Below, piece by piece: positions 33,796 through 54,889 of a stretch of DNA of 64,000 nucleotides. The notes beneath the pieces were generated by a model, which had not been told where the DNA came from, did not search any database, and worked only from the letters and a program-made list of their open reading frames with translations. How positions within the stretch are numbered: the first letter of the stretch is position 1; every line of letters starts with the position of its first letter. The position numbers and the translations under genes are program-made. The stretch comes from Actinomycetes bacterium (lineage in GTDB: Bacteria; Actinomycetota; Thermoleophilia; RBG-16-64-13), in contig JAGXFW010000023.1 of the NCBI GenBank assembly GCA_024637035.1, forward strand, positions 217,139 through 281,138, written 5' to 3'.

Positions 33796-33796
33796 G

Positions 33797-35269: not shown

Positions 35270-35288
35270 CGGGAGGGGGTCCGCCCTT

Positions 35289-37322: not shown

Positions 37323-37340
37323 TTGTGAAAACGTAAGCAA
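37323..37340. promoter_or_regulatory. candidate Rex operator half-match (TTGTGAA-AACG-TAAGCAA) upstream of hemL-rex
   Basis: Left half identical to the Rex box TTGTGAA; right half matches 4 of 7 of TTCACAA. Located ~95 nt upstream of the hemL start. Confidence 0.25.
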
Positions 37341-37617
37341 AGTAACGCGGCAGTGGAGCACTGCATCCCGCCCTTGCCGGTCGGGGCGGGTTATCGCGTT
37401 CCGCCCACCACTGCGCCAGACCACGCGGCGCGGCCCCCTCCCGACTCCCGGTGGGCACCCTGCATGCGCAGGGGGGGCAGACCTGCTCTCCGTGGGGTGC
37501 GCGATGTGACGGGAGTAGCGAGTCACGCCGCTTCATCATCCTCGGTCACCGCACAGCCCGAAACACATGATTGCGACCATCAGCGCTGGAGGGCGCTCCG
37601 AGATCCAGGGGGACGTC

Positions 37618-39960
37618 ATGGAAGACACACCACATAGCAGAGCACGGAACGAAAGCACAACGGAAGACGAAGAGCCTGGGTCGTCAACACGACGCCCGGT
37701 GCCGTCCTCATACGCCGGCCGCCCACGCTGCACCCGCCGCCTCACACTGCTCGCCCTGACCACACTGCTCGCCCTCACGGTGGCCGTCCCGGCTACAGCC
37801 GCCGCTCCGTCCGCACAGAGCACCTCGGCGCAACCGCCGACGCACGCGCAGTCGCAGGCGCAGATGGTCGAACCATCCGGACACACGAAGCGCGCGTTCC
37901 CTCACGAGATCATGAAGGCCGGGAACAAGCGCCTGGAACTGGCGAAGGTCCTGCTCGATACAGCCAAGTCCCAAGCGGCCAAGGACAAGACGAGCGGCGC
38001 GGACACGGCGGCGCTCGACCTCGTCGTCGACCTCCAGGAAGCGCCCGCCGACCTCGAGGCCGCCCTCCTCCTCGAAGCTCAAGCTCAGGGCGCCGCTGCC
38101 GACATCACGTCCGGCACGACCGTCTCCACGATCACCCCGCTCAGCGGTGCCGCCACCTTCCCGGTCACGGTGGACGGGGTGCTCGCCACCGCCGGCGACC
38201 TCACTCTCGACCTCGGGCTGCTCACTGCCGACGACCGCGCGTGGTTCATCGACATCCTCGGCCGGGCGTATCCGGTCATGGTCGACGTCTACGGCCCCCC
38301 GGCGGCACCGTTGACCGTCCGAGTATGGAAGAACGTCTATCTGCCATATCAGGGGCTCTATGCGCCCGAGGGCAACCTCCTCCTCGTGCGCAGCCTGGCA
38401 GCCGACGTGGCCATCCACGAACTCCTACACGCCTTCCGCGACGACGTGATGTCAGCCATCCCGGCCTACGAGGAAGGGATCGTGCGGGCCGCCGAGGTGA
38501 CGATCCTCGATCGCCTGGGCATCGCGAGTTGGGATTCAGGCTTCTCCTATGTGTACGATCGGGCGTACGACGCACACAACGTGGACAGTCTCCTCGGCTC
38601 CACCGGCACCTTCCTGGCGGGCTACGGCCCCATGTACCTTCTGCGCTACCAGACGGCGGGCATGGCCTGGGCTCAGGCCGAGATCGCCCGGCCGGGTCTT
38701 CTACGAGACTTCAATGCGGCCTATGTGGCGGCCGCGCTCGCCGACCCCGCGTGTCGCAGTGATGCCACCCGCCAAGCCTCCCTGCTCGCCGCGCTGTCCG
38801 GTCGAGTGGAAGGACGCAGCCTCGCGGAATGGGCGCCGCTCCAGCGACCGTTCGCGCCGACCGGCGGCGTCGGGGTCCAACTTCACGCCGACGTCACCGC
38901 CGACGCCCTCACGATCAGGCTGTACACCCGTGATGAGTACGGGCTGGAAACGGCGGCACCAGGCACCGTCGCCGTCGAGGTGCGCGACTCCTCGGCCGAC
39001 TTGAACGTACGCAGACTCTCGCTCAACACCAGTGCCCTCGGCATGGCGGCCGCAGAACTCGGCACGCCGACCCCTCGGCGTCTCGACGTGCTGCTCACGG
39101 CCGACACCTCAGGCGGCACCGCAGAGCGCGAACTCCAAGTGTACGGAGGCGTCGGACAAGGTCTCTTCGGCATCGTGCCCGGTTCCGCGCATCCGGCGAC
39201 GGGCATGGTCAGCGCGACCGTCACGACGGCCGACGGCCGCGAGTCCCTCTTCACCGCGCCCATCGGCGATCACGCCTTCCAGATCTCCGACCTGAGCGAC
39301 TTCCTCGGCGTGGTGTCGCTCACCGCCACGTTCGAGAGCGACACCACGACATGGGAGCAGGTCGTGGTCAAGGGTCGGGGAGACACCTACGTGGCGCTCG
39401 GTGACCTTCACCCGGCAGTCGCCGCGGCGCCGACGCAGCCGGTCGTCCCCGAGGCCCCTGTTGTCCCCGAGGCCCCTGTTGTCCCCGAGGCCCCTGTTGT
39501 CCCCGAGGCCCCTGTTGTGCCCGAGGCCCCTGTTGTGGAAGTCGCCGCAATAACCGAGGTCGCCCCTCCGGCGGACTCCACGGCGGCGACACTCACGCTC
39601 GGATTCGTCGCCGAACGCATCTCCATTCGGCACGGGTCGGCGACAGTGGTGAGCTACACGGCGAACGAACCGGTCACAGTCACAGCGATACTCAGGCACT
39701 CGGGATTCCCCTCGACTCCTACTAGAACTCAGGGAAACGCTGCAAACGTCGAGTCTCTTGCGCACCACGCGGCCCAGACTCCCATAGCTCTGACCGGCAT
39801 CGCCGGCAGGATCACGTGGGAAGGGCGCACCTCGACGGGAGAGACCGCCCTACCCGGCCTGTACACGGTGGAGATCCTCGCCGAAGACGCAGCCGGCAAT
39901 CGTTCTCCAGCCGTGATGGTGACAGTGATCCTCACGGCGTCCACCGATCGCCGGCGCTGA
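37618..39960 (+). CDS. secreted putative zinc metallopeptidase (HExxH) with PVVPEA tandem repeats
   Basis: Signal [30 protein letters not shown] motif, (PVVPEA)x5 linker; GGGGGA Shine-Dalgarno before the ATG at 37618. Confidence 0.5.
39445..39534 (+). repeat. 18-bp tandem repeat (gtccccgaggcccctgtt) x5, coding (PVVPEA)n
   Basis: Four exact copies and one 1-mismatch copy, read directly from the sequence. Confidence 0.9.
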
Positions 39961-40035: not shown

Positions 40036-40126
40036 GTCGAGGCCTGAGCGAGCCCAGGTGGGCCGCACCAAGGCCAAGGTGCTAAAGTTCAACCCCGGAA
40101 CCCCCAGTGCCGACAGTAGGGATGGC

Positions 40127-41590
40127 ATGAAGAAGATCCTCCTCATCACCCCGGCCTACCACAGCGGCGTGCTCGAGAGCGCGGGCCGCTGGCCCAACCT
40201 CGGCTTCGTCTACATCGCCGGACACCTGCGCGACGCCGGCTTCGAGCCCGTGATCTACGACGCGATGTCGGCGAACCACGACCTCGCGCAGATCTCAGAA
40301 CGCATCCGCACGGAAGCGCCGGACGCCGTGCTCACCACCGCCTTCACCGCCAGCGTGCCCGCCGCCGTCGATCTGCTCCGCGCCGCCAAGAAGGTGGCAG
40401 CCGAGCAGAGCCGCGAGATCGTCACCGGGTTGGGGGGCGTGCACGCCACCTTCATGTACGCCGAGCTGCTTGAAACGGACCCCGACGCGGTCGACTACTG
40501 CTTCCGCGGCGAGGGTGAGTTGACCACGCCCGAGTTGTTCGCCGCACTTCGCGACGGCGACGACCCCGCTACCGTGCCGGGCGTGGCCTTCCTGCGCGAC
40601 GGCGAAATGGTGGTCTCGCCTGTCCGCCCGTTCATCCCCGACCTCGACGACCTCATCCCCGCCTGGGACCTGGTCGAGTGGGATCTCTACACCTTCTACG
40701 TGCTCCCCGGCAGCCGCATGGCCACCATCAACACGTCGCGCGGCTGCGGCCAAGCCTGCTCCTTCTGCAGCCAGCAGAAGTTCTGGCAGCGCACGTGGCG
40801 CGGGCGCTCACCCGAGGCCATCGCGAACGAGATCTTCCACCTGGAACGCGAGTACGGCATCGACGTGTTCCTCATCTCCGACGAACTCCCCACCTACGAG
40901 CGCGAGCGGTGGGAACGGCTCCTCGACCTGCTGATCGAGGCCGGCTCCACCTCGTACCTGCTCATGGAGACCCGCGTTGACGACATCGTGCGCGACGAGG
41001 ACATCCTGGCCAAGTACCGCAAGGCCGGCATCATCCACATCTACGTGGGTGTGGAAGCCACCAGTCAAGAGACCCTCGACCGCTTCCAGAAGAACGCCGA
41101 CGTGCAGACCGGCAAACGGGCCATCGAACTCCTGGCCCAGCACAACATCCTCACCGAGACCTCGTTCGTACTCGGCGTACCCGAGGAGACCCCGGAGACC
41201 GTCGCCCGCACGCTGGAGATGGCCAAGTTCTACGACCCCGACATGGCCCACTTCCTGCTGCTCGCCCCCTGGCCCTACGCCGACATGTACCCCGAACTCG
41301 AGCCCTACGTGGAGACGCGCGACTACGCGCTCTACAACCTGGTGGAACCGGTGATGCGCACCGAGGCCATGACCCGGGACGAGCTGATGGCGGCCGTCAT
41401 CAAATGCTACATGGACTTCTACATGAGCCGCCTCCCGCTCTGGGCGGCCGAGAGGGACAAGTTCAAGCGCGCCTACATGCTGCGCTCGGCCAAGCTCATC
41501 ATGCAGAACTCGTTCATCACCAAGCACATTCCGGGCGGCTTGAAGATGCCGGCGGCAGTGCGCAAGGCGATCGAGCGGCTGGCGGGATAG
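40127..41590 (+). CDS. B12-binding-domain radical SAM protein (class B)
   Basis: N-terminal B12-binding Rossmann (KKILLITPAY...), radical SAM RGCGQACSFCS; start at MKKILL with AGGGA Shine-Dalgarno. Confidence 0.75.
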   Translation: MKKILLITPAYHSGVLESAGRWPNLGFVYIAGHLRDAGFEPVIYDAMSANHDLAQISERIRTEAPDAVLTTAFTASVPAAVDLLRAAKKVAAEQSREIVTGLGGVHATFMYAELLETDPDAVDYCFRGEGELTTPELFAALRDGDDPATVPGVAFLRDGEMVVSPVRPFIPDLDDLIPAWDLVEWDLYTFYVLPGSRMATINTSRGCGQACSFCSQQKFWQRTWRGRSPEAIANEIFHLEREYGIDVFLISDELPTYERERWERLLDLLIEAGSTSYLLMETRVDDIVRDEDILAKYRKAGIIHIYVGVEATSQETLDRFQKNADVQTGKRAIELLAQHNILTETSFVLGVPEETPETVARTLEMAKFYDPDMAHFLLLAPWPYADMYPELEPYVETRDYALYNLVEPVMRTEAMTRDELMAAVIKCYMDFYMSRLPLWAAERDKFKRAYMLRSAKLIMQNSFITKHIPGGLKMPAAVRKAIERLAG

Positions 41591-41686: not shown

Positions 41687-42772
41687 TCACGAAGCCTCCG
41701 CGCGCTCCAGCTGACGAGCGTCAACGAACCACGAGACCGCCCAGCCGACCGCCCCTGCGACCACCACCCCGAGGGCGCCGAGTACCCAGGAGAGGTACGA
41801 GCCCTTCCACATGACGACCTCCACCACCGGGGCGAATCCCTCTAGCAGCACGGGGAACTCGCCCATCACTACGCTGTCTCCCGGCGCCAGGGCCATGGAG
41901 CCCACAACGCTGTTCTCTTGCGCAAGCGTGACGATTGCGGCTGGCGCGGCGGCGGGCCCACCGAGCGCCTGCGCGATGATGGACACATCCCGACGGAAGT
42001 CAGGGATGACCCGCTCCATAGCGACTGTGAGCACCGAGTCCGTGAAGAGCTGCGCGGCGATCCACCCTTGCCCGCTCTGTAGGAACGGACTCGTCTGGGT
42101 GCGGCCCTGCCAGGAGACCTTCACGCGAGCCGCCCAGGCGGGGGGTGGCTCACGCAGGCGCAATCGCACCCCGCCCGTTTCGACCGTCTCACCCTTCTCC
42201 AAGGACACGTCCACCGAATCCGCCGCCAACCTGGCGTCAGCCGGCCGATCCTGATCGCCGAAGGGGCCGACGAGTTCCCCGCCCGCGAGCCGGGGCACGA
42301 ACTCGAGAGTCGCCAGCGAACCGTCCTCCGGTGTCCACCCCGTCACCGACGCCCGGAACGTCACGTCCAACCCCGGCACCTGCACCGTCTCCCCTGGCGC
42401 GACGGTTACGGTCACCTCGCGGAAGAGGAACAGGTGGAGCAGGGCGAAGACGAGGATTCCGAGCACACCGAGCCAGACGACAGCCTCGAAGAACCAACCT
42501 ACTCCCACGGTGTTGTCGGCGAGGAGTCGATCGGTCGCAATGAGGGTGATGCTCACCCCAAGACCAAGCGTCGCCGCGAGGAAGACGGCCGAGTGCAGCA
42601 TGTCCGAGGGTCCGAACACCCCCGGAAGCAGCGAGCGGAGCTCCGCGGTCGAAGCAGTAGAGCCCAATCCGACTTGAGGCACGAGCACGGCCACGACCGC
42701 CGAGCCCACCATGACCACGGCGAGGGCCAGAGGGATCGGCCACCAGGTGAGAAGACGCCAGATCCGATCCAC
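41687..42772 (-). CDS. ResB/CcsB-like cytochrome c biogenesis protein (short paralog, ~361 aa)
   Basis: ResB-like topology (2-3 N-terminal TM helices, periplasmic domain, C-terminal TM); GTG start at 42772 after trimming the 90-nt overlap with ccsA. Confidence 0.5.
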   Translation of the reverse strand: MDRIWRLLTWWPIPLALAVVMVGSAVVAVLVPQVGLGSTASTAELRSLLPGVFGPSDMLHSAVFLAATLGLGVSITLIATDRLLADNTVGVGWFFEAVVWLGVLGILVFALLHLFLFREVTVTVAPGETVQVPGLDVTFRASVTGWTPEDGSLATLEFVPRLAGGELVGPFGDQDRPADARLAADSVDVSLEKGETVETGGVRLRLREPPPAWAARVKVSWQGRTQTSPFLQSGQGWIAAQLFTDSVLTVAMERVIPDFRRDVSIIAQALGGPAAAPAAIVTLAQENSVVGSMALAPGDSVVMGEFPVLLEGFAPVVEVVMWKGSYLSWVLGALGVVVAGAVGWAVSWFVDARQLERAEAS

Positions 42773-42780
42773 GCCGCGCC

Positions 42781-43596
42781 TCAGAACCGGTAGTGGGTGA
42801 AGAAGAGATAGGTGCCGATGACGCAGGCGAAGCCGATCACCGAGAGCCACGCGGCCCGCACGCTCTCCCACCCCCGGGTGTACTGGGCGTGCAGGTACGC
42901 GCTATAGATGAGCCACGTCACGAGCGCCCAGGTCTCGATGGGATCCCAGGCCCAGTACACGCCACCGATGTACTTGGCCCACAGGGCGCCGGTGAAGAGC
43001 ACCATGGTCATGAATGGGAAGCCGAACACGGCGGCCCTGTATCCGACCCGGTTCACGGCTTCAGGGTCGTATCGTCCGCCCCAGCCGAAGTAGTGGCGAG
43101 CCAGGATCACAGCGCCCGCTCCGAAGGTGACGGTGAACGCGGCGTAGGCGACGATGGAAGTGAGGATATGGAGAAGCAGCCATCCGCTCCGCATGGAGAC
43201 GAGGCTGACCTCTCCGCTGTTCTCTGGGATCAACAGCAAATAGCCAAGCATCAGGAAGCTCACGGGCAGGGCAAGGATGGCGATCCACCATGGGCCGCGA
43301 CGCACGAGGAAATAGGCGACCACCAGGCAGATCGCCCAGGAGAACGCCAGCATGAATTCGAGTTGGTTGTAGACGGCGATCGTGCCCCGTGCCAGGCTGA
43401 GACCAAGGATAAGAGCTGCCTGACCGCCTACTGAGAGTGCCAGGAGACCCCAGAACACAGTGCGCACTCGTCCACGGCGCGCGCCGCCAGGTGCCGGCGT
43501 CTCGAACACCTCGCCCGCTATCGCCGCTATCCACGCCAGCACCGTGCCCGCCAAACCCACGGCGAATGCTGCCAGTTCCCACGGCCTGTCTATCAT
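42781..43596 (-). CDS. ccsA: System II cytochrome c biogenesis protein CcsA/ResC, copy 2
   Basis: WWD motif WAKYIGGVYWAWDPIETWAL; paralog of 17889..18710. Confidence 0.8.
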   Translation of the reverse strand: MIDRPWELAAFAVGLAGTVLAWIAAIAGEVFETPAPGGARRGRVRTVFWGLLALSVGGQAALILGLSLARGTIAVYNQLEFMLAFSWAICLVVAYFLVRRGPWWIAILALPVSFLMLGYLLLIPENSGEVSLVSMRSGWLLLHILTSIVAYAAFTVTFGAGAVILARHYFGWGGRYDPEAVNRVGYRAAVFGFPFMTMVLFTGALWAKYIGGVYWAWDPIETWALVTWLIYSAYLHAQYTRGWESVRAAWLSVIGFACVIGTYLFFTHYRF

Positions 43597-45035
43597 GCTC
43601 CGCCTCTCCCCACGTCGCCCGTCGCCACTTCCGGGTCTTCGGTCGCACCGACCTCGCCACCCAAGAGGGCCAGTTCCTGGGCGAGAGGCTGGTTGCGGCG
43701 CCGAGCGAACCCGATCACCTCGACCCCTCCTTCGACGGGAATGATGCGCAGCTGTCGGAACGAGAACCCCAGAGAAAGCAGCACCCCAATGAGGTTGGCC
43801 ACGAAGCCGCCCACCACCAGCATCCCCCCATCCCGAGAGGAGACAACGGCAACGGGCATGTAGGCCGCCTCGAGGAAGTCGATCGTGTAGCCCTCGGCAG
43901 TGAGTGAGTCTCCAAGCCGCATGTCCGCGGTGGCCACTTGCGCGTCGTCTCCATCGGCGGACTGGCGCACAACGGCGACAGCCGCGAGAGGATCCCGGTT
44001 CTCGGGAGTACGTCTCACCCAGCCCCCGGCGGCCGGCTCCGCATCGCGTGCGAAATCGAGCACGCGCAGCTGCAGGCCGTCGCTGCCCGGGAAGGCGACG
44101 CTCGGAGCATCGAACGACAGTCGTTCGACCGCGGAGGCGCCCTGGGGGGTGGCTATCCGGAACACGAGCTGAGCGCCCGGAGCTGAGGGCTGCAACACCA
44201 CGTCACCGCGGTCGAAGCGCAGACTGGTTCCCAATTCCACCGCGCCTTCCTGCAATCGCTTCCCACCCTCGTACACCGCGATCGTGGCGCGTATGCCGGC
44301 CAACTCGTAGTCGGTCTCATCACCCTCATCCCGCACCTTGCGATAGTCGGGCTCCAACTCGATCAGCTCGAACAGACGGTTCGAGTTTTGTTCGAGCACC
44401 CGCTCGCCTTGAGGAAGGTAGAGGGCTTGACTGAAACCCAGAGAGAGGTTGAGCGTCATGCCGGCGAGCACTATCAGCAGGCTGACGTGCAGCAAGATGA
44501 ACCCAAGAGGCTGCAGACGCCCCCGCGCCAAGGTGATAGCCGGACCGACCGGATCCGAATCGGCACCCGGCGTGCCCTCACCCTCGTCCGGCGCATACAC
44601 CCGGCCAGACCCCACGTGACGGTAGCCTTGAGCCTGCGCCCGACGCGCGACATCCTCCAGCCGGCCGGGTACGAAGATCCGCTCCCTTCCACCTTCCGGC
44701 TCGAACGCTTCCGGGTGGACGCACTGCACCCAAGCAGTACGGAACCGGCCGATAGTGCACAGCAGGATCTGCGCGGCGAAGACCACAAGGAGCGCACGGA
44801 ACCACCAAGAATGGAAAGCATCGTCGATACCAAGCCCGCGGATCAGGGCCGCGCCTACCCGGCCGTACTCCTGATCGTAGAAAGCCGGGTCACGGCCCTG
44901 GTCGACAAAGGCCCCCACGAACGTCGAAGCGAATCCGAGGAGGAGCACTACGGTCGTGACCCGCAGGCTGATGAAAAGCGACATCAGGCGGGCGCCCCAG
45001 CGGCGGGCGCTCCTGCCTTCGGGAGGCGCGCTCAC
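43593..45035 (-). CDS. resB: System II cytochrome c biogenesis protein ResB/CcsB, copy 2
   Basis: MSLFISLRVTTVVLLLGFASTFVGAFV classic ResB N-terminus, 480 aa. Confidence 0.75.
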   Translation of the reverse strand: MSAPPEGRSARRWGARLMSLFISLRVTTVVLLLGFASTFVGAFVDQGRDPAFYDQEYGRVGAALIRGLGIDDAFHSWWFRALLVVFAAQILLCTIGRFRTAWVQCVHPEAFEPEGGRERIFVPGRLEDVARRAQAQGYRHVGSGRVYAPDEGEGTPGADSDPVGPAITLARGRLQPLGFILLHVSLLIVLAGMTLNLSLGFSQALYLPQGERVLEQNSNRLFELIELEPDYRKVRDEGDETDYELAGIRATIAVYEGGKRLQEGAVELGTSLRFDRGDVVLQPSAPGAQLVFRIATPQGASAVERLSFDAPSVAFPGSDGLQLRVLDFARDAEPAAGGWVRRTPENRDPLAAVAVVRQSADGDDAQVATADMRLGDSLTAEGYTIDFLEAAYMPVAVVSSRDGGMLVVGGFVANLIGVLLSLGFSFRQLRIIPVEGGVEVIGFARRRNQPLAQELALLGGEVGATEDPEVATGDVGRGGA

Positions 45036-45583
45036 TCGGAGCCTCCGTTGTTGGTGTCGCCCGGAGAGCCGTCGACGTCGCCCCCGTGGAACGGGCCGGG
45101 GCCCTGGGTATCGGGTTGCGGACCTTCGCCCGACAAGGCCGCCCGAACCTGCTTGACCATGCCTTCATACTGAAGGTTCCCCGGATCCGCGCGGGCGGCG
45201 GCCTCGAAATACGGAAGGGCCGTCTCGACGGACCCCAACCGAAATTGGACCACGCCCATCGTGTAGTTCGCCAGCGGCGACTGGGGGTTACCCCGCACTG
45301 CATCGTCGAGTAATCGTTCGGCTTCGGGCAACTCGCCGGCGAACAGACGCTCCTGTGCCAGATCCAGACTGGCCAGCCAGTTCCCGGGGTCGATAGTCAA
45401 CGCCTCCGAGAGGAGGTCTTCCCTCTGAGATTCGGGAAGGGAGCGCGCTTCCCGAGCCAGGTCGTAGGCCACCGTACGGCGAACGTCCGACCAGTAGCTC
45501 CGGAACAGCCCGGTACCCAGCAGCACCGCCCCCACAAGGGCGACGACGAGGATACTCAGACGAAGAAGGGAGAGGGAGCGCAT
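45032..45583 (-). CDS. membrane-anchored TPR-repeat protein (cluster 2)
   Basis: N-terminal TM (LSILVVALVGAVLLGTGLF) plus TPR-like repeats. Confidence 0.55.
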   Translation of the reverse strand: MRSLSLLRLSILVVALVGAVLLGTGLFRSYWSDVRRTVAYDLAREARSLPESQREDLLSEALTIDPGNWLASLDLAQERLFAGELPEAERLLDDAVRGNPQSPLANYTMGVVQFRLGSVETALPYFEAAARADPGNLQYEGMVKQVRAALSGEGPQPDTQGPGPFHGGDVDGSPGDTNNGGSE

Positions 45584-45628
45584 GGCGCCGCGATTCTACC
45601 AGAGCGCCACAGTCGGCACGCCGGCAGC

Positions 45629-48600
45629 CTACCAGGTCCGCCGTTGGCCGCCGCCGGTGACGTTGTTATCGTGCATCCCATCGTTGCCGCCGCTCGCTCG
45701 AGACCATCCATGCTCGCTATCGCAGTTCGTGCTGGTCGACGGGTTGCTGATGTTGTTCGCGGCACCGATACTGGCGTTGTGGCTTGTCCACTTGCCATTC
45801 GCTGAGTGGCACGAGCCGCAGAACTGGCCGAAGAAGTCCGCCGTGAGCGCGCCCGCGGCGTTGACCTCCCAAGAGGTCAGGTGGATAGCGGCTCCGGACC
45901 CGGCGGCTCCGGTGCCGAGCAGATACGCGTTCGAGTCGTTCATCACGACGCCATCGACCACGATGTACTCACGCAGGAAGTACACGTTCTGCGATCCGTG
46001 CGGGTCGTGACAGGCGGTGCACTGCATGGCGGCGTAGGCGTAGGCGGGGTTGGAGTCAGAGTACGTAGTGCTCTGGAAGGGGTAGCGTGGACGCCAGTCG
46101 CGGTCGGAGCTGATGCTGCTGCCGTCGCCACTCCCGTGACGCACCGGGGTGGCGGTGCCATCGCCCAACCACTTGGCTGCAATATCCATCGGGACGGCAC
46201 TGCCCATGTTGACCGTCGGAGAAGTGCCGGCGGGCACGGTGTTGTCATGGCAGGCCAGGCAGAATTTGATGGAGTCCGCCGTAGCTTCCGCCGCGCCGCT
46301 GGCCGGGTTGTACGGTGCGGCCGTCCCATGGATGCCGGCAGGGTGATCCGGGTTCAGGTCGGCGTTCGCCCCGGACGGGACGTTCGCGTAGTTGCGAGCC
46401 GCGCCACCCACCACGAGCGTGTTCAGCGTGGAGTAGGCCCTCAGCGCCGTCGGGTACCCCGCCGTCCCTGGCTGCACGTCGGCGTCGAGAACCTTCCAGT
46501 AGTTGCTGGATGGGGTGGCTCCGGCGTTCAGGTGCGGGTTGTGGCAGTTCAAACACTCGATGGCGCCGGTTGTCGTGTTGGCAGTCGCGCCTCCGGTCCC
46601 GCGCTTGGTGACCGAGTACGTCACCCCCTGCTCGCTGTCGAGCACAGGGTGGTGACTCAACGGGACCGCCGCGCCAGCGGAAGCCTTGTTGTAGGCGAGC
46701 GTGCCTGCCGGAGTGGCTGTCGCCGTGAACTTCCGCTGAATGCTGTAGCTCGTCGTGCCCGGCCCGACGAGCCTCCCCGGGCCCGCTGCGGCATGACACT
46801 GGTAGCAGAGGTCCTCCTCGAAGGCCAACGTGTAGTTGGCGTACTGCGTGCCGTGCGGGTTGTGGCACTGCTTGCAGACGCCCACGTAGATGTTCTGAGC
46901 GACGGCAGGCACCGGGGGCGAGTAGGTCAGGCTGCGCGTCTTCGTGCTGGCCCCGTGGCCGGAACTCGTGTACGACGCACCGGGCAGGTTCGGAGCGATG
47001 GGCCCGCCGATGGGTAGGCCGTGGCAGCTATTGCACACTGCGTTGTACTGGGTGTTGTAGTTAGCGGCCGAGGTGCCGTTGAAGGTGCGCACGAATCCCT
47101 TGATGTTCTCCGAGATCAGCTTGTCGTTGGTTGTGCCGTGCTCCGAGTGGCAGCCCTTGCAGGCGATGCTCTCCACCGAGGGCACCCGCAGGTCGTTCAT
47201 CAGGATGCCGGCGCCGCTCAGCTTGTTGTGGCCGCTGCCGGACGCCGGGTAGTTCGTCTTGTGGTCGGTGCCCGTCGAGGCGTTCCACGATGCGCTGCTG
47301 ATGTAGCCGGCCGACGTGGCCGCGGTGGTGTTGTGGCAGGTCCAGCAGAAGTCGTTGCCGGTGACGTTGACGTAGGCTCCCGAGTACGACGGGTCGAGCT
47401 TCTTCACCGCCAGGAAGCGCTGCCCGGTGCCGGTCCGCGCGTGCGCGTTGTGGCAGTTGGAGCACCGCATGACGGCGCCCGTGTTCGTTGTCGCGCCGCT
47501 CACCCACGTGTGGGTGAGAGAGGCCGGCACCGGATGGTACGACCCGGACGAACCCACGATCTTCGTGGACGTGCCGATGACGGCCTCACCGAAGTCCCAG
47601 GAGAAGGGCGAGACGTTGTCGGTGGTCTTCACGTTGTACGACGACCCCGTGCCGTCGTGGCAGGCGTAGCACACCTGCTTCTCGGTAGCCGCGGGGAAGA
47701 GCTTGCCGCCGAGGTTAGAGGCTTGGACGGCGGCACCGTGCACCGAGTGGCAGTTGCGGCACAGGTTCTTGGCGGTCGTGTAGCCCCCGTGCGCCGTGAT
47801 GCCGGTGGCGGCCGTGGTGAAGGTCGTGGTGGACGCCGAGCCGAGCGGATTGCCGGCCAAGTCGGTCACGGCCCCCGAGATCCACACGGTGTACACGGTG
47901 CTGATGTCCATCATGGCGTCGGGATAGACATAGACCCGGGTGCGATCCGAACTCAGCACCACGGTCTCCGCCGAGATGGGCGTCGCCCCGATGCGTATCT
48001 GCACCTTGTCGTTCGTGAGCGTGCTCGGATCCATCTCCTCGCCGAAGACGATCGTGACGAACCCGTTGACAGGGACGCCGGTGGCGAGGTTCGCGGGCGT
48101 GACCGTCGAGACCGTGGGCGCTGTGGCGTCCAGGGAGGCGGCGGCGAACTCGGTGAAGTGACTCACCGTTCCGGTGACCGTGTCGGCCGCCTGGTTCACG
48201 GTCGAGCCGCCCTCCACCTGCACCCACGCCGTTCCGTTGAAGTAGAGGAGCTTGATGGTCGATTCGTCCACAGCCCCGGGCACGTACTTCAGGGTGATCT
48301 GCACCGGGCTTGTGAACAGCTGAGCGGCCGGAGTGGAATTGTAACTCGGGGTCACGAAGACCTTCGGCGGCGAACTCGGGGTGGTGGTGAGTTCGGTGAT
48401 GCCGATGGCCGTGGCCCCGGGGAGCGCACCGGCCGGAACGACGAGGCGCGCTTTGCCGTTGGTGGCGAGGAGCGTTCCGCCGCCCGCGCCCACACTCCCG
48501 TTCACGAGCACCATCGAAGTGTTCGCAACCGCGGACTTCACCGACTCGTTGCTGCTGGCGTCGACCGCCGTCACCTTGTAGTAGTAGACGACTCCCTCGG

Positions 48601-50692
48601 CTCCGTACGTGGTGTCGTCGTAGGTAGTGGTGGCGATCAGAGGGCCGTTCACCTTCGTCGCGAAGGCCCCGCCGGCCGAGGTGTCGCGGTACACGTTGTA
48701 GCCCGCCAAATCGGGAGCGATCGAGGCATCCCAGGAGAGCCGGTTGAGACCGTGTCCCGAGAAGGCCGTGAGACCGGTCAGTTGAACGGGAGGCGTCACG
48801 TCGAGCGCCGGGTTGTAGCCAAGGAAGCCAGATGCTCCCGGAGCTTGGGGCAGGTTCCCGGCCGCGTCGGTCACCGAAGGCGTTGTGAGCTTCACGCTCA
48901 CCGTGTAAGAAGAGCTCACGGTCTGTGCCGAAGTGGTGAGCCGCACCGTCCGGTTGTCGCCGAGCAGCGTAGCCGCCGAGACGGTGAGGCCGGAGATGGT
49001 GAAGTAGGCCGGCAACACGGAGCCCGAGGCCAGGTCCTCACCGAAGAGCACGTCGACGTTGGTCGCGGCAATAGCCACAGCCGCGACGACAGCCGGACCC
49101 GTGTTGTCGATGGTCACCGGTGTGATCGTTGTCGTGGAGGAGTTGGTGAGCACGTCGGTAGCGACCAGGCGGAACTGATACTGCCCATCGGTGCGCGTCG
49201 TGGTGTCGAAGGTGTTGAGGACGGCGTCGGTCACGTTGGCCGATCCGGTGGCCAGCGTGGACCACGACACCGGAGAGACGGCGGAGATGGAGAGGGTCCA
49301 GTTGGAGATCACGGCATCGCTGGCGGTTCCGCGGATCTGATAGGCCGTGCCCCTGATGGTCGAGGGGGCCGTCGGAGCCGTGATGGCCACCGTCGGGCCG
49401 GTGTTGTCCACCCGCACGTACTGAGCGGGCGAGAAGGCGGTGTTGCCGGCCACGTCGCGAAGCTGCGCCTGCAGCTTGTACCTGCCGTCGGCCACGAGGG
49501 CCGTATTCCAGGACACTCGGTATGTGGAGCCTGCCACAGGCGTCGTCTGGTTCACGTCCACCTGGGTGCCCACCGCGTCGTACGCTGCGCCATTCCACGC
49601 ATAGTAATAAAAGGCCACGAAGTTCACGCCCGAGCCGCCGGCGTCGGCAGCCGTGGCGTCGTAGTTCACTGTGCCCCGGATGCCGGTGGGTGGCGGCGCG
49701 CCGTCCACCCCGATGGGTGCGGTGATCGCGGGCGCCGCGATGGTGGCGTCCACCTTGAACAGTTGGCTCTTGTGCGGCGTCTCCTCGTTCGGGATGGCGT
49801 CCCGCGAGTAGTACCAGAGGGTGTTCGTGCCGGTCAGAGCGGAGAACGACGCGCCGTAGAGAGTGCCGGCTCCGGAGGCAGGGTCGCTGTTCCAGTTGTA
49901 GCGAATGATGGTGGGCGAGCCCTCGGGGTCGGTGGCGCTCAGCGTGATGCTGGGCACGGTCTTGAACCAGCCTGAGTCCCCGTCGAGTGCCGCGGGACTC
50001 GTGGAGAGTGACGTGGTGGGGGCGGTGCTGTCGGAGGGCGTCTCGTTCACGCGTAGGTACGACGCCTGGTTGGATCCGGTGGTGCCGTTGAAGAGCAAGT
50101 TGGTGTCATTCGAGTTGTCCCTGTCCACCTCCACGAGAACGCGCAAGCGCCTACCCGCTGGGATAGTGGTGGCGATGTTCGTGAAGTTGACCGTGAGGGT
50201 CTGCGCGCCACTGCCGGTACCGAGAGTCTGCTGATTCAATTGGACGCTGGCGCCGGTCGTCGAGTTGTACTCGTAGAGCGTGACCCTCCAACCGTCCCAT
50301 GTTCCGCTCACCCCCATGAAGAACTGGGCGTTGGCGGCGATCTGCGTGTCTTGGGCGTAGTCGGCCGCGGTGTACACGTCTACCATCCGATACCACGCAC
50401 CGTCCCCCCAGCTGCTCGTACGCACCATGGTGATCGCACTACTCCCGTTGGTGGTGGAGAAGAGGGTCACCCGGTTGGTCGAATTACTGTAGGGGGAACC
50501 AGCAGTCGTCACGTTCGTGGATAGACCGCCGCCCGGGATGGCGACGCCGCTGCTCGCGGTCACATAGTAGTCGACGACCGCGCCCGAGGCCGGCGACGCC
50601 GCCGAGACGACAAAGAAGAGCGCGAGCAGCACGAAGCCCACGAGGACGCGAGCATCCAGCCCCGCGACCCGCAAGCTTGTGGCCATCTTCAC
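45629..50692 (-). CDS. giant multiheme c-type cytochrome (1687 aa), paralog of 19921..25011; 12 CxxCH
   Basis: Signal peptide. Ig-like repeat modules and a conserved block (MDPSTLTNDKVQIRIGA...GITAHGGYTTAKNLCRNCHSVHGAA...CYACHDGTG) nearly identical in arrangement to cytochrome 1. CRNCH, CYACH, CSNCH, CWTCH, CKGCH, CNSCH, CKQCH, CYQCH, CLNCH, CLACH, CTACH, CGSCH. Confidence 0.85.
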   Translation of the reverse strand: MKMATSLRVAGLDARVLVGFVLLALFFVVSAASPASGAVVDYYVTASSGVAIPGGGLSTNVTTAGSPYSNSTNRVTLFSTTNGSSAITMVRTSSWGDGAWYRMVDVYTAADYAQDTQIAANAQFFMGVSGTWDGWRVTLYEYNSTTGASVQLNQQTLGTGSGAQTLTVNFTNIATTIPAGRRLRVLVEVDRDNSNDTNLLFNGTTGSNQASYLRVNETPSDSTAPTTSLSTSPAALDGDSGWFKTVPSITLSATDPEGSPTIIRYNWNSDPASGAGTLYGASFSALTGTNTLWYYSRDAIPNEETPHKSQLFKVDATIAAPAITAPIGVDGAPPPTGIRGTVNYDATAADAGGSGVNFVAFYYYAWNGAAYDAVGTQVDVNQTTPVAGSTYRVSWNTALVADGRYKLQAQLRDVAGNTAFSPAQYVRVDNTGPTVAITAPTAPSTIRGTAYQIRGTASDAVISNWTLSISAVSPVSWSTLATGSANVTDAVLNTFDTTTRTDGQYQFRLVATDVLTNSSTTTITPVTIDNTGPAVVAAVAIAATNVDVLFGEDLASGSVLPAYFTISGLTVSAATLLGDNRTVRLTTSAQTVSSSYTVSVKLTTPSVTDAAGNLPQAPGASGFLGYNPALDVTPPVQLTGLTAFSGHGLNRLSWDASIAPDLAGYNVYRDTSAGGAFATKVNGPLIATTTYDDTTYGAEGVVYYYKVTAVDASSNESVKSAVANTSMVLVNGSVGAGGGTLLATNGKARLVVPAGALPGATAIGITELTTTPSSPPKVFVTPSYNSTPAAQLFTSPVQITLKYVPGAVDESTIKLLYFNGTAWVQVEGGSTVNQAADTVTGTVSHFTEFAAASLDATAPTVSTVTPANLATGVPVNGFVTIVFGEEMDPSTLTNDKVQIRIGATPISAETVVLSSDRTRVYVYPDAMMDISTVYTVWISGAVTDLAGNPLGSASTTTFTTAATGITAHGGYTTAKNLCRNCHSVHGAAVQASNLGGKLFPAATEKQVCYACHDGTGSSYNVKTTDNVSPFSWDFGEAVIGTSTKIVGSSGSYHPVPASLTHTWVSGATTNTGAVMRCSNCHNAHARTGTGQRFLAVKKLDPSYSGAYVNVTGNDFCWTCHNTTAATSAGYISSASWNASTGTDHKTNYPASGSGHNKLSGAGILMNDLRVPSVESIACKGCHSEHGTTNDKLISENIKGFVRTFNGTSAANYNTQYNAVCNSCHGLPIGGPIAPNLPGASYTSSGHGASTKTRSLTYSPPVPAVAQNIYVGVCKQCHNPHGTQYANYTLAFEEDLCYQCHAAAGPGRLVGPGTTSYSIQRKFTATATPAGTLAYNKASAGAAVPLSHHPVLDSEQGVTYSVTKRGTGGATANTTTGAIECLNCHNPHLNAGATPSSNYWKVLDADVQPGTAGYPTALRAYSTLNTLVVGGAARNYANVPSGANADLNPDHPAGIHGTAAPYNPASGAAEATADSIKFCLACHDNTVPAGTSPTVNMGSAVPMDIAAKWLGDGTATPVRHGSGDGSSISSDRDWRPRYPFQSTTYSDSNPAYAYAAMQCTACHDPHGSQNVYFLREYIVVDGVVMNDSNAYLLGTGAAGSGAAIHLTSWEVNAAGALTADFFGQFCGSCHSANGKWTSHNASIGAANNISNPSTSTNCDSEHGWSRASGGNDGMHDNNVTGGGQRRTW

Positions 50693-50868
50693 GTTCTCAC
50701 GTGGACTACTGATCGATGCCTCCCTTGACCAACCTCGACCTATCTTCTATCGGCACGTAGGGTGTTTCGCTAGAGTGCACATCACCCTCCAAGCCGCCAC
50801 ACGTTTCTCAAGTTCGCATGCTATCAAAGCACGGTGTCGACGGGCATAGCGAAAATACCGTCCCGTGT

Positions 50869-51756
50869 TCAGTCAGCCACCGTGGTTGATGTGGTCCCGT
50901 CGACCCCCGACAGCGTCGTGGTCGTGGATGCTCCCCGCAATCGGTCGAGCAAAGCCCGCGCTTCCGCGTTGTCGGGGTTCTCCGCCAGAGCCTTCTCGAG
51001 TTGCAGGGCGGCGTTGTCCGCTTGATCGACCGCCACCAACTGCTCGGCGAGCGCCACACGGATCTGGTCGAACTGTACCCCCATAGGGCGCATCTCGATC
51101 ACCTCGAAGTAGAGCCTGATGGCCCGGTCGGCGTCGCCGAGTCCGGCGACCGTCTCGGCGAGGGCCACGCGCGCCGCGGTGAAGTCGCTGTTGAGGCGCA
51201 AAGACTCCTCGTAGCTCGCGGCTGCCTCTTCGGGCTGCTCCAGGCGCCTCTGGATGTTCCCGATGCGGAAGTGGGCTTCGAAATCACGGGCGTCGAGTTC
51301 GAGGATGTCCCGGTACACCTGCATAGCGCCGTCCCAATCGAGTCCGCGCTCATACACGAGAGCCAACAAGTAGCGGGCTTGCTTATCCTGCGGATTGACC
51401 TCGAGATGGGCTTCCAGCTTCGACTGAGCGGCCGCCAGGTCACCCGATTGGATGTCCGAGGTGCCGGGGATCGCTTCGCCCAATGTGGTACTGGTGGTCT
51501 CTACGGCCGAAGTGGAAGTAGTCGTCGCGGACTCTCCGCGGAGCGAAGCCGCGATCGCGACCGCGCCGCCGCCGAGAAGTAGGACTACCCCGAGTGCCAG
51601 AAGAAGCCGCCGTACCGCCAAGGAGTCGCCTCCCCATTCGTCCTGGACCGATGCCGCCACGGGGCGATGGCCGCTGGAAAACGCAGCAGAGCGCGACCCG
51701 TACCCGTGGTTCCGAGCCGGAATAGTATGACACATGACTCCGCCTGCGCGCGTCAT
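50869..51756 (-). CDS. membrane-anchored TPR-repeat protein upstream of cytochrome 2
   Basis: TM helix LLLALGVVLLLGGGAVAIA then TPR-like repeats; start uncertain. Confidence 0.5.
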   Translation of the reverse strand: MTRAGGVMCHTIPARNHGYGSRSAAFSSGHRPVAASVQDEWGGDSLAVRRLLLALGVVLLLGGGAVAIAASLRGESATTTSTSAVETTSTTLGEAIPGTSDIQSGDLAAAQSKLEAHLEVNPQDKQARYLLALVYERGLDWDGAMQVYRDILELDARDFEAHFRIGNIQRRLEQPEEAAASYEESLRLNSDFTAARVALAETVAGLGDADRAIRLYFEVIEMRPMGVQFDQIRVALAEQLVAVDQADNAALQLEKALAENPDNAEARALLDRLRGASTTTTLSGVDGTTSTTVAD

Positions 51757-51873: not shown

Positions 51874-52389
51874 ATGGCTCGCAGCGATAAGGATTTCTTG
51901 GGTCTGGAGGTAGTCAGCCTCGAAGACGCGTCGGTCGTGGGTGAGGTGGACGCGCTCATCGTGGACGACACGAAGAACGCCGTCGTCGGTCTGGTGATCG
52001 ACTTGGGCGTATACGAAGCGAAGGCGCTCGCCTTCAGCGACATCTTGAGCATCGGGGAAGACGCCGTCATGATCGGTGCTTCCTCAGCCGTCAGGCCCAT
52101 CTCCCAGCACAGCGCGCTGGAAGCACTCGCCGAGCGCGACGTGCAGGTGGCCGACACACTCGTCATGACGGACCATGGCGATCTCGTGGGCGTAGTCGGA
52201 GACTATTATCTGGACTCCGCCACCGGTGTTATCAAAGGCATCGAAGTCTTGCCGGAAGACATGGGTGACGACGATGTCGCCGCCACCTACCTCGTACCTG
52301 CGTCTGACCTCATCAAGATGAGCGCTGAGCTCGTCATGATCAAGGCCGGGTTCGAAGAACGTGCGGTAGACTCCGAGGAATCTCTCTAG
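51874..52389 (+). CDS. PRC-barrel domain protein (two PRC barrels)
   Basis: LEVVSLEDASVVGEVDALIVDD... and a second copy; paralogous to the N-terminal half of 53150..54337. Confidence 0.6.
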   Translation: MARSDKDFLGLEVVSLEDASVVGEVDALIVDDTKNAVVGLVIDLGVYEAKALAFSDILSIGEDAVMIGASSAVRPISQHSALEALAERDVQVADTLVMTDHGDLVGVVGDYYLDSATGVIKGIEVLPEDMGDDDVAATYLVPASDLIKMSAELVMIKAGFEERAVDSEESL

Positions 52390-52443
52390 TTCGACCAAAC
52401 GGAGGGACTCGACGGGCACCATGACCTCTGAAAGGCACACTAT

Positions 52444-53145
52444 ATGAACATGCTGGTGCTCGCAGTGGCCGGTGTGTTCGTGCTTGCGGGCCTGGTTCTC
52501 ATCGTCCTCTCGTTCCTGGTGGGGCGCGCAAAGCCTGCGTCTGAGTCCGCGCTGGCCGGAGCCTCCGCCGCCGCCCCTACGGAACTCACCGCCGCCTTCA
52601 TCGACCAGCCCCTCGCCAAGGACATGGCGGACGACCTCAGGGATCGCAAGAAGGCCGTGCCGGATGCCGCTGCCGCCGTGACGGCGATCGCGCCAGAAGT
52701 CGCGAGCAAAGTGGCTGCCGATGCTGGTGCAGCCGCTGCCGGTCTCGCGGAAGAGGCCGAGGAGAAGGCCGAGGAGAAGGAAGCCGTCGCGGTCTCGTCC
52801 GCTCCCCCGCCCCCGACGCCCGCCGCGAACCTGGTGGGATTCAACTTCAGGGTGCAACTCGGCTTCAAGTTCCTGCAGAACGGTCTCTACGAAGACGGCG
52901 TGGCCGAGTTCCAGAAGGCGCTCGCCCTCACCGATGACCGCGACGCCAAGCTCAAGCTCTATGTAGAGATCGGCAACGCCTTCCGCACCCAACGCATGAG
53001 CGGACCGGCAGCCGCCTCTTACATGCAGGCTACTTCGTACACGGAGAACCCGATGCTATTGGAGCATCTGGAGAGGACAATCTCGGAGATGATGGAATCG
53101 GACACGTCTACCCAGGGCACGTCCGGATCAACAAAGGAGGAATAA
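52444..53145 (+). CDS. hypothetical membrane-anchored protein with helical-repeat (TPR-like) C-terminus
   Basis: N-terminal TM, Ala/Glu-rich linker, C-terminal helical repeat; no family recognised. Confidence 0.4.
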   Translation: MNMLVLAVAGVFVLAGLVLIVLSFLVGRAKPASESALAGASAAAPTELTAAFIDQPLAKDMADDLRDRKKAVPDAAAAVTAIAPEVASKVAADAGAAAAGLAEEAEEKAEEKEAVAVSSAPPPPTPAANLVGFNFRVQLGFKFLQNGLYEDGVAEFQKALALTDDRDAKLKLYVEIGNAFRTQRMSGPAAASYMQATSYTENPMLLEHLERTISEMMESDTSTQGTSGSTKEE

Positions 53146-53149
53146 AGTT

Positions 53150-54337
53150 ATGGCGAGGATTGATACGGATCTCCTGGGCCTTCAGATCGTCGCGCTCGAC
53201 ACCGCCACTGTGGTGGGCGAAGTGGACGGCCTTCTGATCGATGACGCGACGGTCAAGGTGGCCGGCTTTCTGGTGGATCTGGGCCTCTATGAGGCGTCGG
53301 TCCTGCCGTACTCTTCGGCCCACGCCGTTGGACTCGACGCGGTCGTGGTAGAGAGCGGCTCCAAGATCGCGGCCATCTCGGCCGACCCCGCGCTCGCGGC
53401 CCTCGCGGAGAAGGACATCACCATCACCGACGCCAAGGCGATCACGCGTGAGGGTCGTACGGTCGGTACCATCGGAGACTATTTCATCGACACCGAGACC
53501 GGCGACGTGGTGGGCATGGAGTTCATCGCCGCTGACCAGACGGTGTACCCCCGCGAGACCGCGGTGATCCCCGCGTCGAGCGTCTACCGTCTGGGGCGTG
53601 ACATCATCGTGCTCGAGGCCGACTACGCCCAGCACCTGCAGAAGGACGAGGGTTCGCTGGAGCGGGTAGCCAAGCCGGTCGAGCCGATCAAGGCAGAAGC
53701 CCCCGCAGCTGCCCCGGTCGTCGTCGCTGCGCCCGTACAGCCGGTCGCTGTCGTCGAGCCGGAGCCGGAGCCGCCGGTCGTGTCCGAACCCGCTCCCGTC
53801 GAAGAGCCCCCCGCGCCCGAGCCGGCTCAGGAGTTGGAGGAGGCCTTCGAGGCCATCACCACCCCCGAAGAGGCACCGGCCGTCGAAGCGGCGCAAGAAG
53901 CCGAAGAGGTCGTTGAGGCTATCGAAGAACCGCCCGTCGAATTGGTGGCAGAGCTCAAGGAGATCGAGCCCGAAGTCGAGGTGGCCGAGGAGATCACCCC
54001 GCTTGCAGCGGTGACCCCCGCCTACGCCGACGACACTCTGACCTCGGAGCCCGCCCCCGACCTGTCAGAGCCCCAGACCGCGGTCGAAGAAGCTGTCGTC
54101 GAAGAAGCACCCGTGGCGGAGGCCCCGGTCGAAGAGGCCCCAGCCACGGAAGCTCCCGCCGAAGATGCGTTCACGTCACAGCAGAAGCACTTCCTCATCG
54201 GCAAGCGCGTGCTTCGTCGCATCGAGACTCCCTCCGGCGAACTGATCGCCGACATGGGTGAACTGGTCACGTTCGAGATCATCCAGAAGGCGAAGGGTTC
54301 CGACCAACTTCTCATTCTTTCCCTGAACGTCGAATAG
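53150..54337 (+). CDS. PRC-barrel domain protein with long acidic Pro/Glu-rich linker and conserved C-terminal domain
   Basis: MARIDTDLLGLQIVALDTATVVGEVDGLLIDD (PRC barrel x2), then a PE-rich low-complexity region. Confidence 0.6.
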   Translation: MARIDTDLLGLQIVALDTATVVGEVDGLLIDDATVKVAGFLVDLGLYEASVLPYSSAHAVGLDAVVVESGSKIAAISADPALAALAEKDITITDAKAITREGRTVGTIGDYFIDTETGDVVGMEFIAADQTVYPRETAVIPASSVYRLGRDIIVLEADYAQHLQKDEGSLERVAKPVEPIKAEAPAAAPVVVAAPVQPVAVVEPEPEPPVVSEPAPVEEPPAPEPAQELEEAFEAITTPEEAPAVEAAQEAEEVVEAIEEPPVELVAELKEIEPEVEVAEEITPLAAVTPAYADDTLTSEPAPDLSEPQTAVEEAVVEEAPVAEAPVEEAPATEAPAEDAFTSQQKHFLIGKRVLRRIETPSGELIADMGELVTFEIIQKAKGSDQLLILSLNVE

Positions 54338-54405: not shown

Positions 54406-54889
54406 TATTGTCGACCCCGTGTCACGCCGGCGGTGGACCACGGTTCGGAATCGGTAGAGCCGGAATCGGTCCGTTTTTGTCAGAGTAGAATTGCGTGGTT
54501 GCAGACGAATAATCCGCCGGCTTTCCAAACTAGCTGCAAATGGCGCATTCCTAGACTCAATGCGGTTGATTCGCCGCCTGAAGAAGTCCTTGACAGACCC
54601 CTTGGATGCCTATAGGCTATCGCCTGAGAGTATAAGGAGTTGGAGGCGTAGATCCCCGTTTCCGTACCTGGGCACTTGGGGCGGGGGGAGCCAGTAGTGC
54701 AACCGGCCATGGGGATGGCCGGTTTCTTTCGTTTTTCCGGTTCATCTCAAGAACATGAGACAGTCACTTCAGACCGGGGCCTCGGCCCCGGTCGACTCGT
54801 CTCTAGAGCACTACTACCTGCCGTAGTAGTGCCGATGTTCACGAACTCCTTTCCTCCAGAGACTAATGTGGAAAGGAGGTGAATCGCAA

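Follow-up and report, generated by a model that had tools for sequence, protein, structure and literature searches.

A giant multihaem cytochrome encoded with a probably substrate-coupled System II haem-attachment synthase in a Thermoleophilia actinobacterium

We analysed a 64,000-nucleotide (nt) stretch of contig JAGXFW010000023.1 from an actinobacterium of the Thermoleophilia (hereafter the window), which carries two modules, module 2 (41687..51756, minus strand) and module 1 (17490..25913, minus strand), each placing a gene for a cytochrome of about 1,700 amino acids (aa) beside genes for ResB and CcsA, the haem-attachment proteins of System II cytochrome c maturation. The reading we prefer, with a probability of about 0.6, is that these genes encode a System II synthase that is co-transcribed with, and probably coupled to, its substrate, a giant envelope cytochrome, with tetratricopeptide repeat (TPR) proteins and a further membrane protein, here called X, as accessory factors. 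We infer that each synthase prefers the cytochrome encoded next to it, and likewise what the TPR proteins and X do and that the system serves electron transfer.

Gene content and age of the two modules

In the window, which has a G+C content of about 66%, codon-position G+C points to one clear coding frame over 41687..51756, all of it on the minus strand. The genes of module 2, in the order in which they would be transcribed (upstream TPR, cyt2, downstream TPR, ResB2, CcsA2, X), are located as an earlier note on this DNA had placed them:

50869..51756, minus strand: upstream TPR protein, 295 aa (Pfam TPR_19/16/11, 1e-11 to 1e-14)
45629..50692, minus strand: cyt2, giant cytochrome, 1687 aa (Paired_CXXCH_1 5.5e-30, Cytochrome_C7 2.6e-10)
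45032..45583, minus strand: downstream TPR protein, 183 aa (Pfam TPR_16 1.6e-10)
43593..45035, minus strand: ResB2 (CcsB), 480 aa (PF05140 1.2e-24)
42781..43596, minus strand: CcsA2 (ResC), 271 aa (PF01578 2.3e-27)
41687..42772, minus strand: X, 361 aa, no Pfam hit

The start of X was set at the GTG at 42772, which the database protein and the orthologues use, though the open frame reaches 42871. The last four genes are joined by 4-nt overlaps or 8-nt gaps and therefore form one translationally coupled unit; genes of the operon overlap by 4 nt or are spaced by 8-45 nt. A scan for promoters and terminators returned sites no more numerous than in shuffled sequence.

Module 1 holds the following genes:

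25008..25913, minus strand: upstream TPR protein of module 1, 301 aa, with a 4-nt overlap with the cyt1 start
19921..25011, minus strand: cyt1, giant cytochrome, 1696 aa, with Ig-like (immunoglobulin-like) domains followed by 15 CxxCH
18707..19879, minus strand: ResB1, 390 aa from the ATG at 19879, four transmembrane (TM) helices (PF05140 3.4e-24)
17889..18710, minus strand: CcsA1, 273 aa (PF01578 7.8e-34)
17490..17876, minus strand: small membrane protein, 128 aa, about three hydrophobic segments, closing the module

The proteins of the two modules are related at low identity: 32% between CcsA1 and CcsA2 (E 1e-28), 25% between ResB1 and ResB2 (E 1e-5) and 27% over 150 aa between the two upstream TPR proteins (E 1e-5). 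At the DNA level the similarity between the modules is confined to a single 467-bp match of 70% identity in a conserved block of the cytochromes, so the second module is neither a recent copy nor an artefact of assembly, and both modules are also present in other metagenome-assembled genomes (MAGs). Judged from these comparisons, modules 1 and 2 are anciently diverged paralogues. The earlier note had proposed that the whole module (TPR gene, giant cytochrome, ResB and CcsA) was duplicated, subject to a check that the copies are not recent and identical; the proposal holds up at a protein identity of 25-32%, and so does the check. Furthermore, at least two additional MAGs carry both modules in the same gene order, G04_MAG_00059 (module 2 in locus L006, module 1 in L010) and OS_PC_MetaG.mb.176 (module 2 in L005, module 1 in L008), which indicates that the duplication predates these lineages and that both copies have been maintained.

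Catalytic signatures of the two synthase pairs

Both ResB proteins belong to the family by Pfam score (PF05140, 87.4 and 85.9 bits for ResB1 and ResB2 at a cut-off of 24.6), by a topology of four TM helices with a large extracytoplasmic domain, beta-rich in ResB2, and by their membrane histidine. The only invariant histidine in an alignment of ten ResB sequences is H183 of ResB2 (LLHVSLL; LVLHVGLL in ResB1), which aligns to LLLHASF of the Helicobacter hepaticus CcsBA structure 7S9Y; this is the membrane residue that ResB/CcsB provides for the haem channel (role described in PMC12285233). The histidine of the ResB2 motif FHSWWF is not conserved, being Arg or Ser in other members, ResB1 included.

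CcsA1 and CcsA2 score 117.6 and 96.5 bits against PF01578 (cut-off 29.9). CcsA2 aligns to residues 695-892 of H. hepaticus CcsBA (E 4.8e-7) and contains the WWD domain (YWAWDPIETWAL) together with three conserved histidines (LLLHIL, YLHAQ and FFTHY), and CcsA1 likewise keeps the WWD motif (LWGSYWSWDPVE) and three histidines. Among nine CcsA sequences the WL..H histidine, the motif YWxWDPxExWxL / YW(S/A)WDP(V/I)E, the YLH histidine and the C-terminal histidine are invariant. Thus both synthase pairs look catalytically intact as far as their conserved residues indicate. In the whole CcsA2 clade, Gly replaces the first Trp of WGxxWxWD (IGGVYWAWDP), which is retained in CcsA1 and in the CcsA of the relative L007. 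Moreover, neither protein reaches the cut-off of the NCBIfam equivalog TIGR03144 (170.3 bits for CcsA1 and 133.7 for CcsA2, cut-off 187.6), so that both are divergent members of the family with CcsA2 the more derived, as would be expected of specialised paralogues.

The giant cytochromes

The cyt2 protein begins with a hydrophobic signal peptide or anchor (residues 16-34), continues with an Ig-like part of about 850 aa (Big_3_3, Big_13 and Big_5) and ends in a haem part with exactly 12 CxxCH motifs, all within residues 978-1629; it is assigned to the multihaem c-type cytochromes by its several CxxCH, its export and its matches to multihaem domains. No C-terminal TM helix was found in cyt2, nor a sortase motif on inspection of its sequence by eye. 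In addition, residues 732-808 give a weak match to a ZU5 domain (E 0.006), and precomputed annotations list the same match in several orthologues. As some ZU5-like domains cleave themselves, the Ig stalk of cyt2 might be processed.

In cyt1, the N-terminal region (residues 33-174) is a 'choice-of-anchor V' domain (NF041895, 61.6 bits) that contains a CX4CH motif at residues 53-59 (CGAGGCH, and CGAAGCH in the L010 orthologue). This motif is a possible sixteenth, non-canonical haem site, which would lie about 900 residues ahead of the main haem domain.

Aligned end to end, cyt1 and cyt2 are 26.7% identical over 1577 columns (E 2e-92, without composition correction), and 11 of the 12 CxxCH motifs of cyt2 are collinear with motifs of cyt1. 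One block stands out, at 62% identity compared with 24-34% in the remainder of the two proteins:

47603..48145, minus strand: conserved block of cyt2, residues 850-1030, comprising the last Big_5 domain and the first paired CxxCH unit
22030..22488, minus strand: conserved block of cyt1, residues 820-995

The block, which in cyt2 bears the motifs GITAHGGY..NLCRNCH..VCYACHDGTG, is 51-94% identical among orthologues and about 30% identical over its full length to Big_5 multihaem cytochromes of Desulfosporosinus. The count of 12 motifs in cyt2, the long collinear stretches common to the two cytochromes and the sharing of this particular block had all been read correctly in the earlier note. Given its conservation, the block is probably a docking site for a partner that both cytochromes share. 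Gene conversion was considered as its origin and rejected: the cyt1 block is 61% identical to that of cyt2 from the same genome and 51-70% identical to those of distant cyt2 orthologues.

Protein X

The last gene of module 2 encodes a protein with four TM helices placed as in ResB1 and an extracytoplasmic, beta-rich domain of about 210 aa. A sequence search of 5.8 billion proteins yielded six relatives, and a profile search of 1.84 billion representatives returned only two clusters of the X family and two other proteins. One of these, P0128 (E 8e-5), is a repeat protein that matches profile positions 279-301 alone; the other, P0129, matches the X profile weakly (E 4.4e-4) and is itself a genuine short ResB (PF05140 5e-32). 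Neither search found homologues of X outside the actinobacterial relatives. Neither X nor the 128-aa small membrane protein of module 1 has a Pfam or NCBIfam match even at E 10, blastp of X against ResB1 and ResB2 is not significant, and a search of PDB sequences with the X profile gave only chance matches to nuclear receptors.

The kinship with ResB emerges from profile-profile comparison, in which the X family aligns to the ResB alignment with 88% probability (hhalign, E 3e-6); the aligned part runs through the first three TM helices into the beginning of the outer domain. Alignments restricted to the low-diversity orthologues of ResB2 or to the C-terminal halves are not significant (E 0.04-0.13), though the C-terminal strand and TM region fall where expected. 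A Foldseek search with the X model placed CcsBA as the top match, at a non-significant E of 0.018. The position that corresponds to H183 of ResB2 is Trp or Phe in every member of the X family, so X cannot replace ResB in haem transport; its own invariant residues are H60 at the outer end of TM2, E96 in TM3 and many in the extracytoplasmic domain. Overall, we consider it quite probable that X is a degenerate ResB paralogue unable to supply the haem-channel ligand, and its features suggest that it is most likely an accessory subunit. The earlier note had called X ResB-like and regarded its ResB histidines as decisive for that name. Remote paralogy is upheld by profile-profile alignment, fold and topology, whereas X is invisible to Pfam, NCBIfam, blastp and PDB sequence searches, and the channel histidine, invariant in 10/10 ResB sequences, is lost to Trp or Phe, which takes away part of the assignment. 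The further idea of the note, that X may act as a specificity subunit, is a guess.

TPR proteins and the small membrane protein

Each of the three TPR proteins carries one TM helix near its N-terminus, and in the two upstream proteins a basic cytoplasmic tail comes before this helix. Their TPR domains are therefore predicted to lie outside the membrane, where System II is active. The upstream protein of module 2 consists of this helix (residues 51-69), Ser/Thr-rich linkers and the TPR domain, and its orthologues are found 5' of cyt2 in L005, L006, L009, L011 and L085. The downstream protein combines a TPR domain with an N-terminal segment that is either a TM helix or a signal anchor. Its gene has a 4-nt overlap with the ResB2 start, is conserved in L001, L004, L085 and L086 and has no counterpart in module 1. 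Matches of the upstream proteins to PF23914 (TPR_CcmH_CycH) stay below the cut-off of 42 (27.0 bits in module 2, 32.6 in module 1).

A side observation concerns L008 (MAG OS_PC_MetaG.mb.176), in which the cyt1 orthologue at 9824..12568 has about 915 residues, comprising a signal peptide, the Big_5 block and 15 haems, and is devoid of the Ig half; the upstream TPR gene is missing from L008 too. The joint loss of the Ig stalk and the TPR gene hints at a functional tie between them.

The 128-aa protein that closes module 1 has histidines in hydrophobic segments (NNFLHDLASGTW and VKH) and belongs to a family with the common motifs NNxLHDLAxGxW and VKH, both located in hydrophobic segments. It is homologous to proteins of 127-131 aa encoded after X in relatives:

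L001, 11083..11466: small-protein gene
L004, 9314..9697: small-protein gene
L085, 13407..13802: small-protein gene
L086, 5350..5733: small-protein gene

Relatives thus have such a gene at the end of both modules. In the window no copy follows X, the one of module 2 having been lost, and tblastn of the window yields the module 1 copy only. A spacer of 97 nt separates X from the convergent radical-SAM gene, and the same junction is present on an independent 3.3-kb Logan contig. From its motifs, this small His-bearing membrane protein could bind haem.

Conservation in relatives

We identified about 12 full-length orthologues of cyt2, with 12-13 CxxCH each, all of them from MAGs labelled Thermoleophilia, Gaiellales or Actinomycetota. 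In L001, L004, L085 and L086 the order is TPR, cytochrome, TPR, ResB, CcsA, X and the 127-131 aa protein, followed by a convergent B12 radical-SAM gene; in L085, ResB and CcsA are fused into one CcsBA of 765 aa. Outside this group, Desulfosporosinus (L012-L016) encodes a 598-aa cytochrome with Big_5 and haem domains (L013), clustered with NapC-like cytochromes and NHL proteins, and the cluster continues with a TetR gene, ResB, CcsA and haem-biosynthesis genes.

Proposed mechanism and alternative explanations

In the proposed mechanism, each protein of about 1,700 aa would be exported by the Sec pathway and would consist of an N-terminal Ig-like stalk and a C-terminal chain of 12 to 16 c-type haems, the chain presumably acting as a wire through the cell envelope. 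ResB would provide the membrane histidine of the haem channel and CcsA the haem-presenting WWD site with its flanking histidines, and together they would export haem b and, while the giant apoprotein is still emerging, form the thioether bonds on the outside of the membrane. The membrane-anchored TPR proteins and X most likely serve as accessory factors that keep the very long apoprotein or its product in place, by holding, positioning or anchoring it; a part in haem transport is unlikely for them.

Several observations weigh against a dedicated synthase with X as its accessory. All haem motifs of cyt2 are canonical CxxCH, with none of the non-canonical kind that would mark a special substrate, so that nothing in the cyt2 sequence demands a special synthase. 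The cytochromes share a block of 62% identity and the synthases 25-32% overall, and the block is therefore likelier to bind something common to both modules than the synthase of either one. Furthermore, the cyt2-like gene of L011 has no adjacent synthase, that of L007 is followed by a more canonical ResB/CcsA and lacks both the second TPR gene and X, three further multihaem cytochromes in the window are without a synthase of their own, and no CcdA/ResA-type thiol-reduction gene was found in the 64-kb window. As to X, its AlphaFold2 models are of moderate quality (mean pLDDT, the predicted local distance difference test, 63-65), and a home-made ResB hidden Markov model scores two of seven X-family members above all 1,407 shuffled or reversed decoys, a marginal result with a collinear full-length alignment.

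The alternative that survives best, a real possibility if an unlikely one, is that the modules reflect capacity and co-regulation only, ordinary non-specific ResB/CcsA pairs boosting haem export and ligation when the cytochromes are induced. It would suit the canonical motifs of cyt2, the gene in L011 and the three neighbouring cytochromes, which must be matured by these pairs or by another system, as well as the position of HemL nearby in the window and of the Desulfosporosinus cytochrome cluster next to a ResB/CcsA/hemA operon of the housekeeping type. Dosage alone, however, hardly explains why pairs of 25-32% identity are kept side by side in three genomes; moreover, X and the second TPR protein co-vary with the ResB2/CcsA2 type, and both CcsA proteins fall under the equivalog cut-off. 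The same evidence divides the suggestion of the earlier note that each conduit needs its own machinery: it agrees with the two giant Ig-haem proteins and fails for the three other cytochromes of the window.

For X, and perhaps the TPR proteins too, we also considered a structural role, in which a re-used ResB-like scaffold would anchor the finished cytochrome to the membrane or bring it to its electron donors. This we think unlikely. X has no haem-channel histidine and carries invariant residues of its own, as listed above, and cyt2, with neither a C-terminal TM helix nor a visible sortase motif, would need a partner to stay at the membrane; the L008 orthologue of cyt1 devoid of both the Ig half and the TPR gene likewise hints that the TPR protein acts with the finished stalk. 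The placing of X argues the other way, since it is always directly behind CcsA2 or a fused CcsBA, in tight or overlapping arrangement.

It is less probable still that one housekeeping pair, most likely ResB1/CcsA1, serves all c-type cytochromes and that only ResB2, CcsA2 and X are specialised, since in three genomes ResB1/CcsA1 stay close to cyt1 and to the gene for the small membrane protein, CcsA1 too lies under the equivalog cut-off and neither CcdA nor ResA, their usual partners in actinobacteria, is adjacent, even though CcsA1 is nearer the canonical family (170 versus 134 bits in TIGR03144, with the full WGxxWxWD), the CcsA of L007, which looks more canonical, shares 40% identity with CcsA1 and 26% with CcsA2, and no further System II genes were seen in the 64-kb window.

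The substrate-coupled synthase can also be put in a bolder form, as an expanded and so far undescribed System II for the giant envelope-spanning cytochromes of monoderms, with five to six components, namely ResB, CcsA, TPR chaperones functionally analogous to CcmI/NrfG, X and the small His protein. This wider proposal is tentative and less likely than not.

Relation to known systems and significance

System II is usually viewed as a two-protein machine. Compared with its canonical forms, ResB/ResC of Bacillus subtilis and CcsBA of H. hepaticus (PDB 7S9Y, 7S9Z), the CcsA proteins described here are short (271-273 aa) and below the equivalog cut-off, CcsA2 is without the first Trp of the WWD motif, CcdA/ResA are not adjacent and X is without the membrane histidine.

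CcmI/CycH and NrfG are TPR apocytochrome chaperones of System I, and we know of no established TPR chaperone for System II. Like CcmI/CycH, the TPR proteins of the modules are membrane-anchored with a TPR domain predicted to face outward, are encoded with haem-attachment genes and match PF23914 weakly; unlike them, they accompany System II rather than System I, and the matches to PF23914, being below the cut-off, may reflect generic TPR similarity.

The principle of a cytochrome-linked synthase is already known. Four ResB/ResC-like pairs are present in Geobacter sulfurreducens and likewise in G. metallireducens (GSU0613-0614, GSU0704-0705, GSU2881.1-2880 and GSU2891-2890). They are co-transcribed with multihaem cytochrome genes, and the authors suggested that the neighbouring cytochromes are the ones each pair matures (PMC2700814). 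As in the modules described here, several diverged System II pairs are thus found in one genome, in operons with multihaem cytochromes of an organism capable of extracellular electron transfer, and in both cases a dedication of each pair has been proposed. In contrast to the Gram-negative Geobacter, the present host is a monoderm, and the pair is joined by one giant Ig-haem protein, membrane TPR proteins and a small His protein, and in module 2 also by X. For Wolinella succinogenes, PMC12285233, citing Kern et al. 2010 and Hartshorne et al. 2007, describes three substrate-specific System II synthases, NrfI, CcsA1 and CcsA2. Like the present pairs, they are System II paralogues encoded beside particular multihaem substrates, which in Wolinella require them. 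They differ in being CcsBA fusions whose specificity is experimentally proven and tied to the unusual motifs CX2CK and CX15CH, where cyt2 has CxxCH throughout and cyt1 a single CX4CH. With four ResB/ResC pairs beside cytochrome genes in Geobacter and three substrate-specific synthases in Wolinella, the description of the arrangement as unusual in the earlier note was overstated.

Gram-positive electron-transfer clusters with multihaem cytochromes, NHL and TPR proteins were reported in Dethiobacter alkaliphilus, Thermincola and Carboxydothermus (PMC10376724). The window shares with these clusters, and with L012-L016 of Desulfosporosinus, the NapC/CymA-like quinol dehydrogenases, NHL propellers, TPR proteins and secreted multihaem cytochromes, whereas the cytochromes of the Firmicutes are much smaller (598 aa in L013) and ResB/CcsA of Desulfosporosinus belong to a housekeeping-type operon with hemA. 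Multihaem cytochromes were reported to be rare in neutrophilic Actinobacteria (PMC7399161), and our literature search for multihaem cytochromes of Thermoleophilia or for 'ResB-like' paralogues found nothing specific.

New in the present case are the actinobacterial setting with Ig-haem proteins of 1,700 aa, the duplication of an entire module with its TPR gene, and the company of a His-less ResB paralogue, of TPR proteins outside the membrane and of a small membrane protein bearing histidines. If the synthase sets are tuned to their cytochromes, the operons would offer a compact and portable means of making very large multihaem 'wire' proteins, whose expression in foreign hosts is difficult. 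The TPR chaperones, the pseudo-ResB and the small His-bearing protein would then be the first candidate accessory factors of System II. The finding also places actinobacteria of the Thermoleophilia type among the few Gram-positive lineages in which a cytochrome-based route of extracellular electron transfer can be recognised.

Genomic neighbourhood

From the genes around them, the modules look like part of an extracellular electron-transfer island of an uncultured Gram-positive actinobacterium. The remaining features of the window are as follows:

25937..35933: region between the modules, with two MqnC/MqnE-type radical-SAM genes, UbiE, UbiA, UbiD, Rex, a PIN-domain gene and an AAA+DUF4143 gene
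35944..37539: HemL
37567..39960, plus strand: 797-aa protein, no Pfam/NCBIfam match, adjoining the radical-SAM gene in L001 and L006 too
40058..41590, plus strand: B12-binding radical-SAM protein, nearest to BchE (TIGR02026 422 bits, cut-off 481)
51874..54337, plus strand: two PRC-barrel proteins (171 and 395 aa) and a 233-aa protein without family
54866..58375: 1169-aa multihaem cytochrome, within the electron-transfer island
58625..59641, minus strand: NHL-repeat propeller protein
59838..61926: NapC/NirT-like (334 aa) and NrfH-like (356 aa) membrane cytochromes
61821..63941, plus strand: 706-aa protein with Wzy_C (O-antigen-ligase-like) and C-terminal TPR domains (PF23914 48.4 bits, above cut-off)

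The menaquinone genes between the modules are those of the futalosine pathway. The PRC-barrel and 233-aa genes are also kept next to module 2, in divergent orientation, in L005, L006, L009, L011 and L085, and the B12 radical-SAM gene, with HemL nearby, is its convergent neighbour in L001, L004, L007, L085 and L086. BchE is the anaerobic Mg-protoporphyrin cyclase; placed beside a cytochrome c synthase in a non-phototroph, the radical-SAM enzyme might modify haem or another tetrapyrrole. The gene for the 706-aa Wzy_C/TPR protein directly follows the NapC/NrfH-like cytochromes, and its product may have a role in glycosylation or in the assembly of surface cytochromes.

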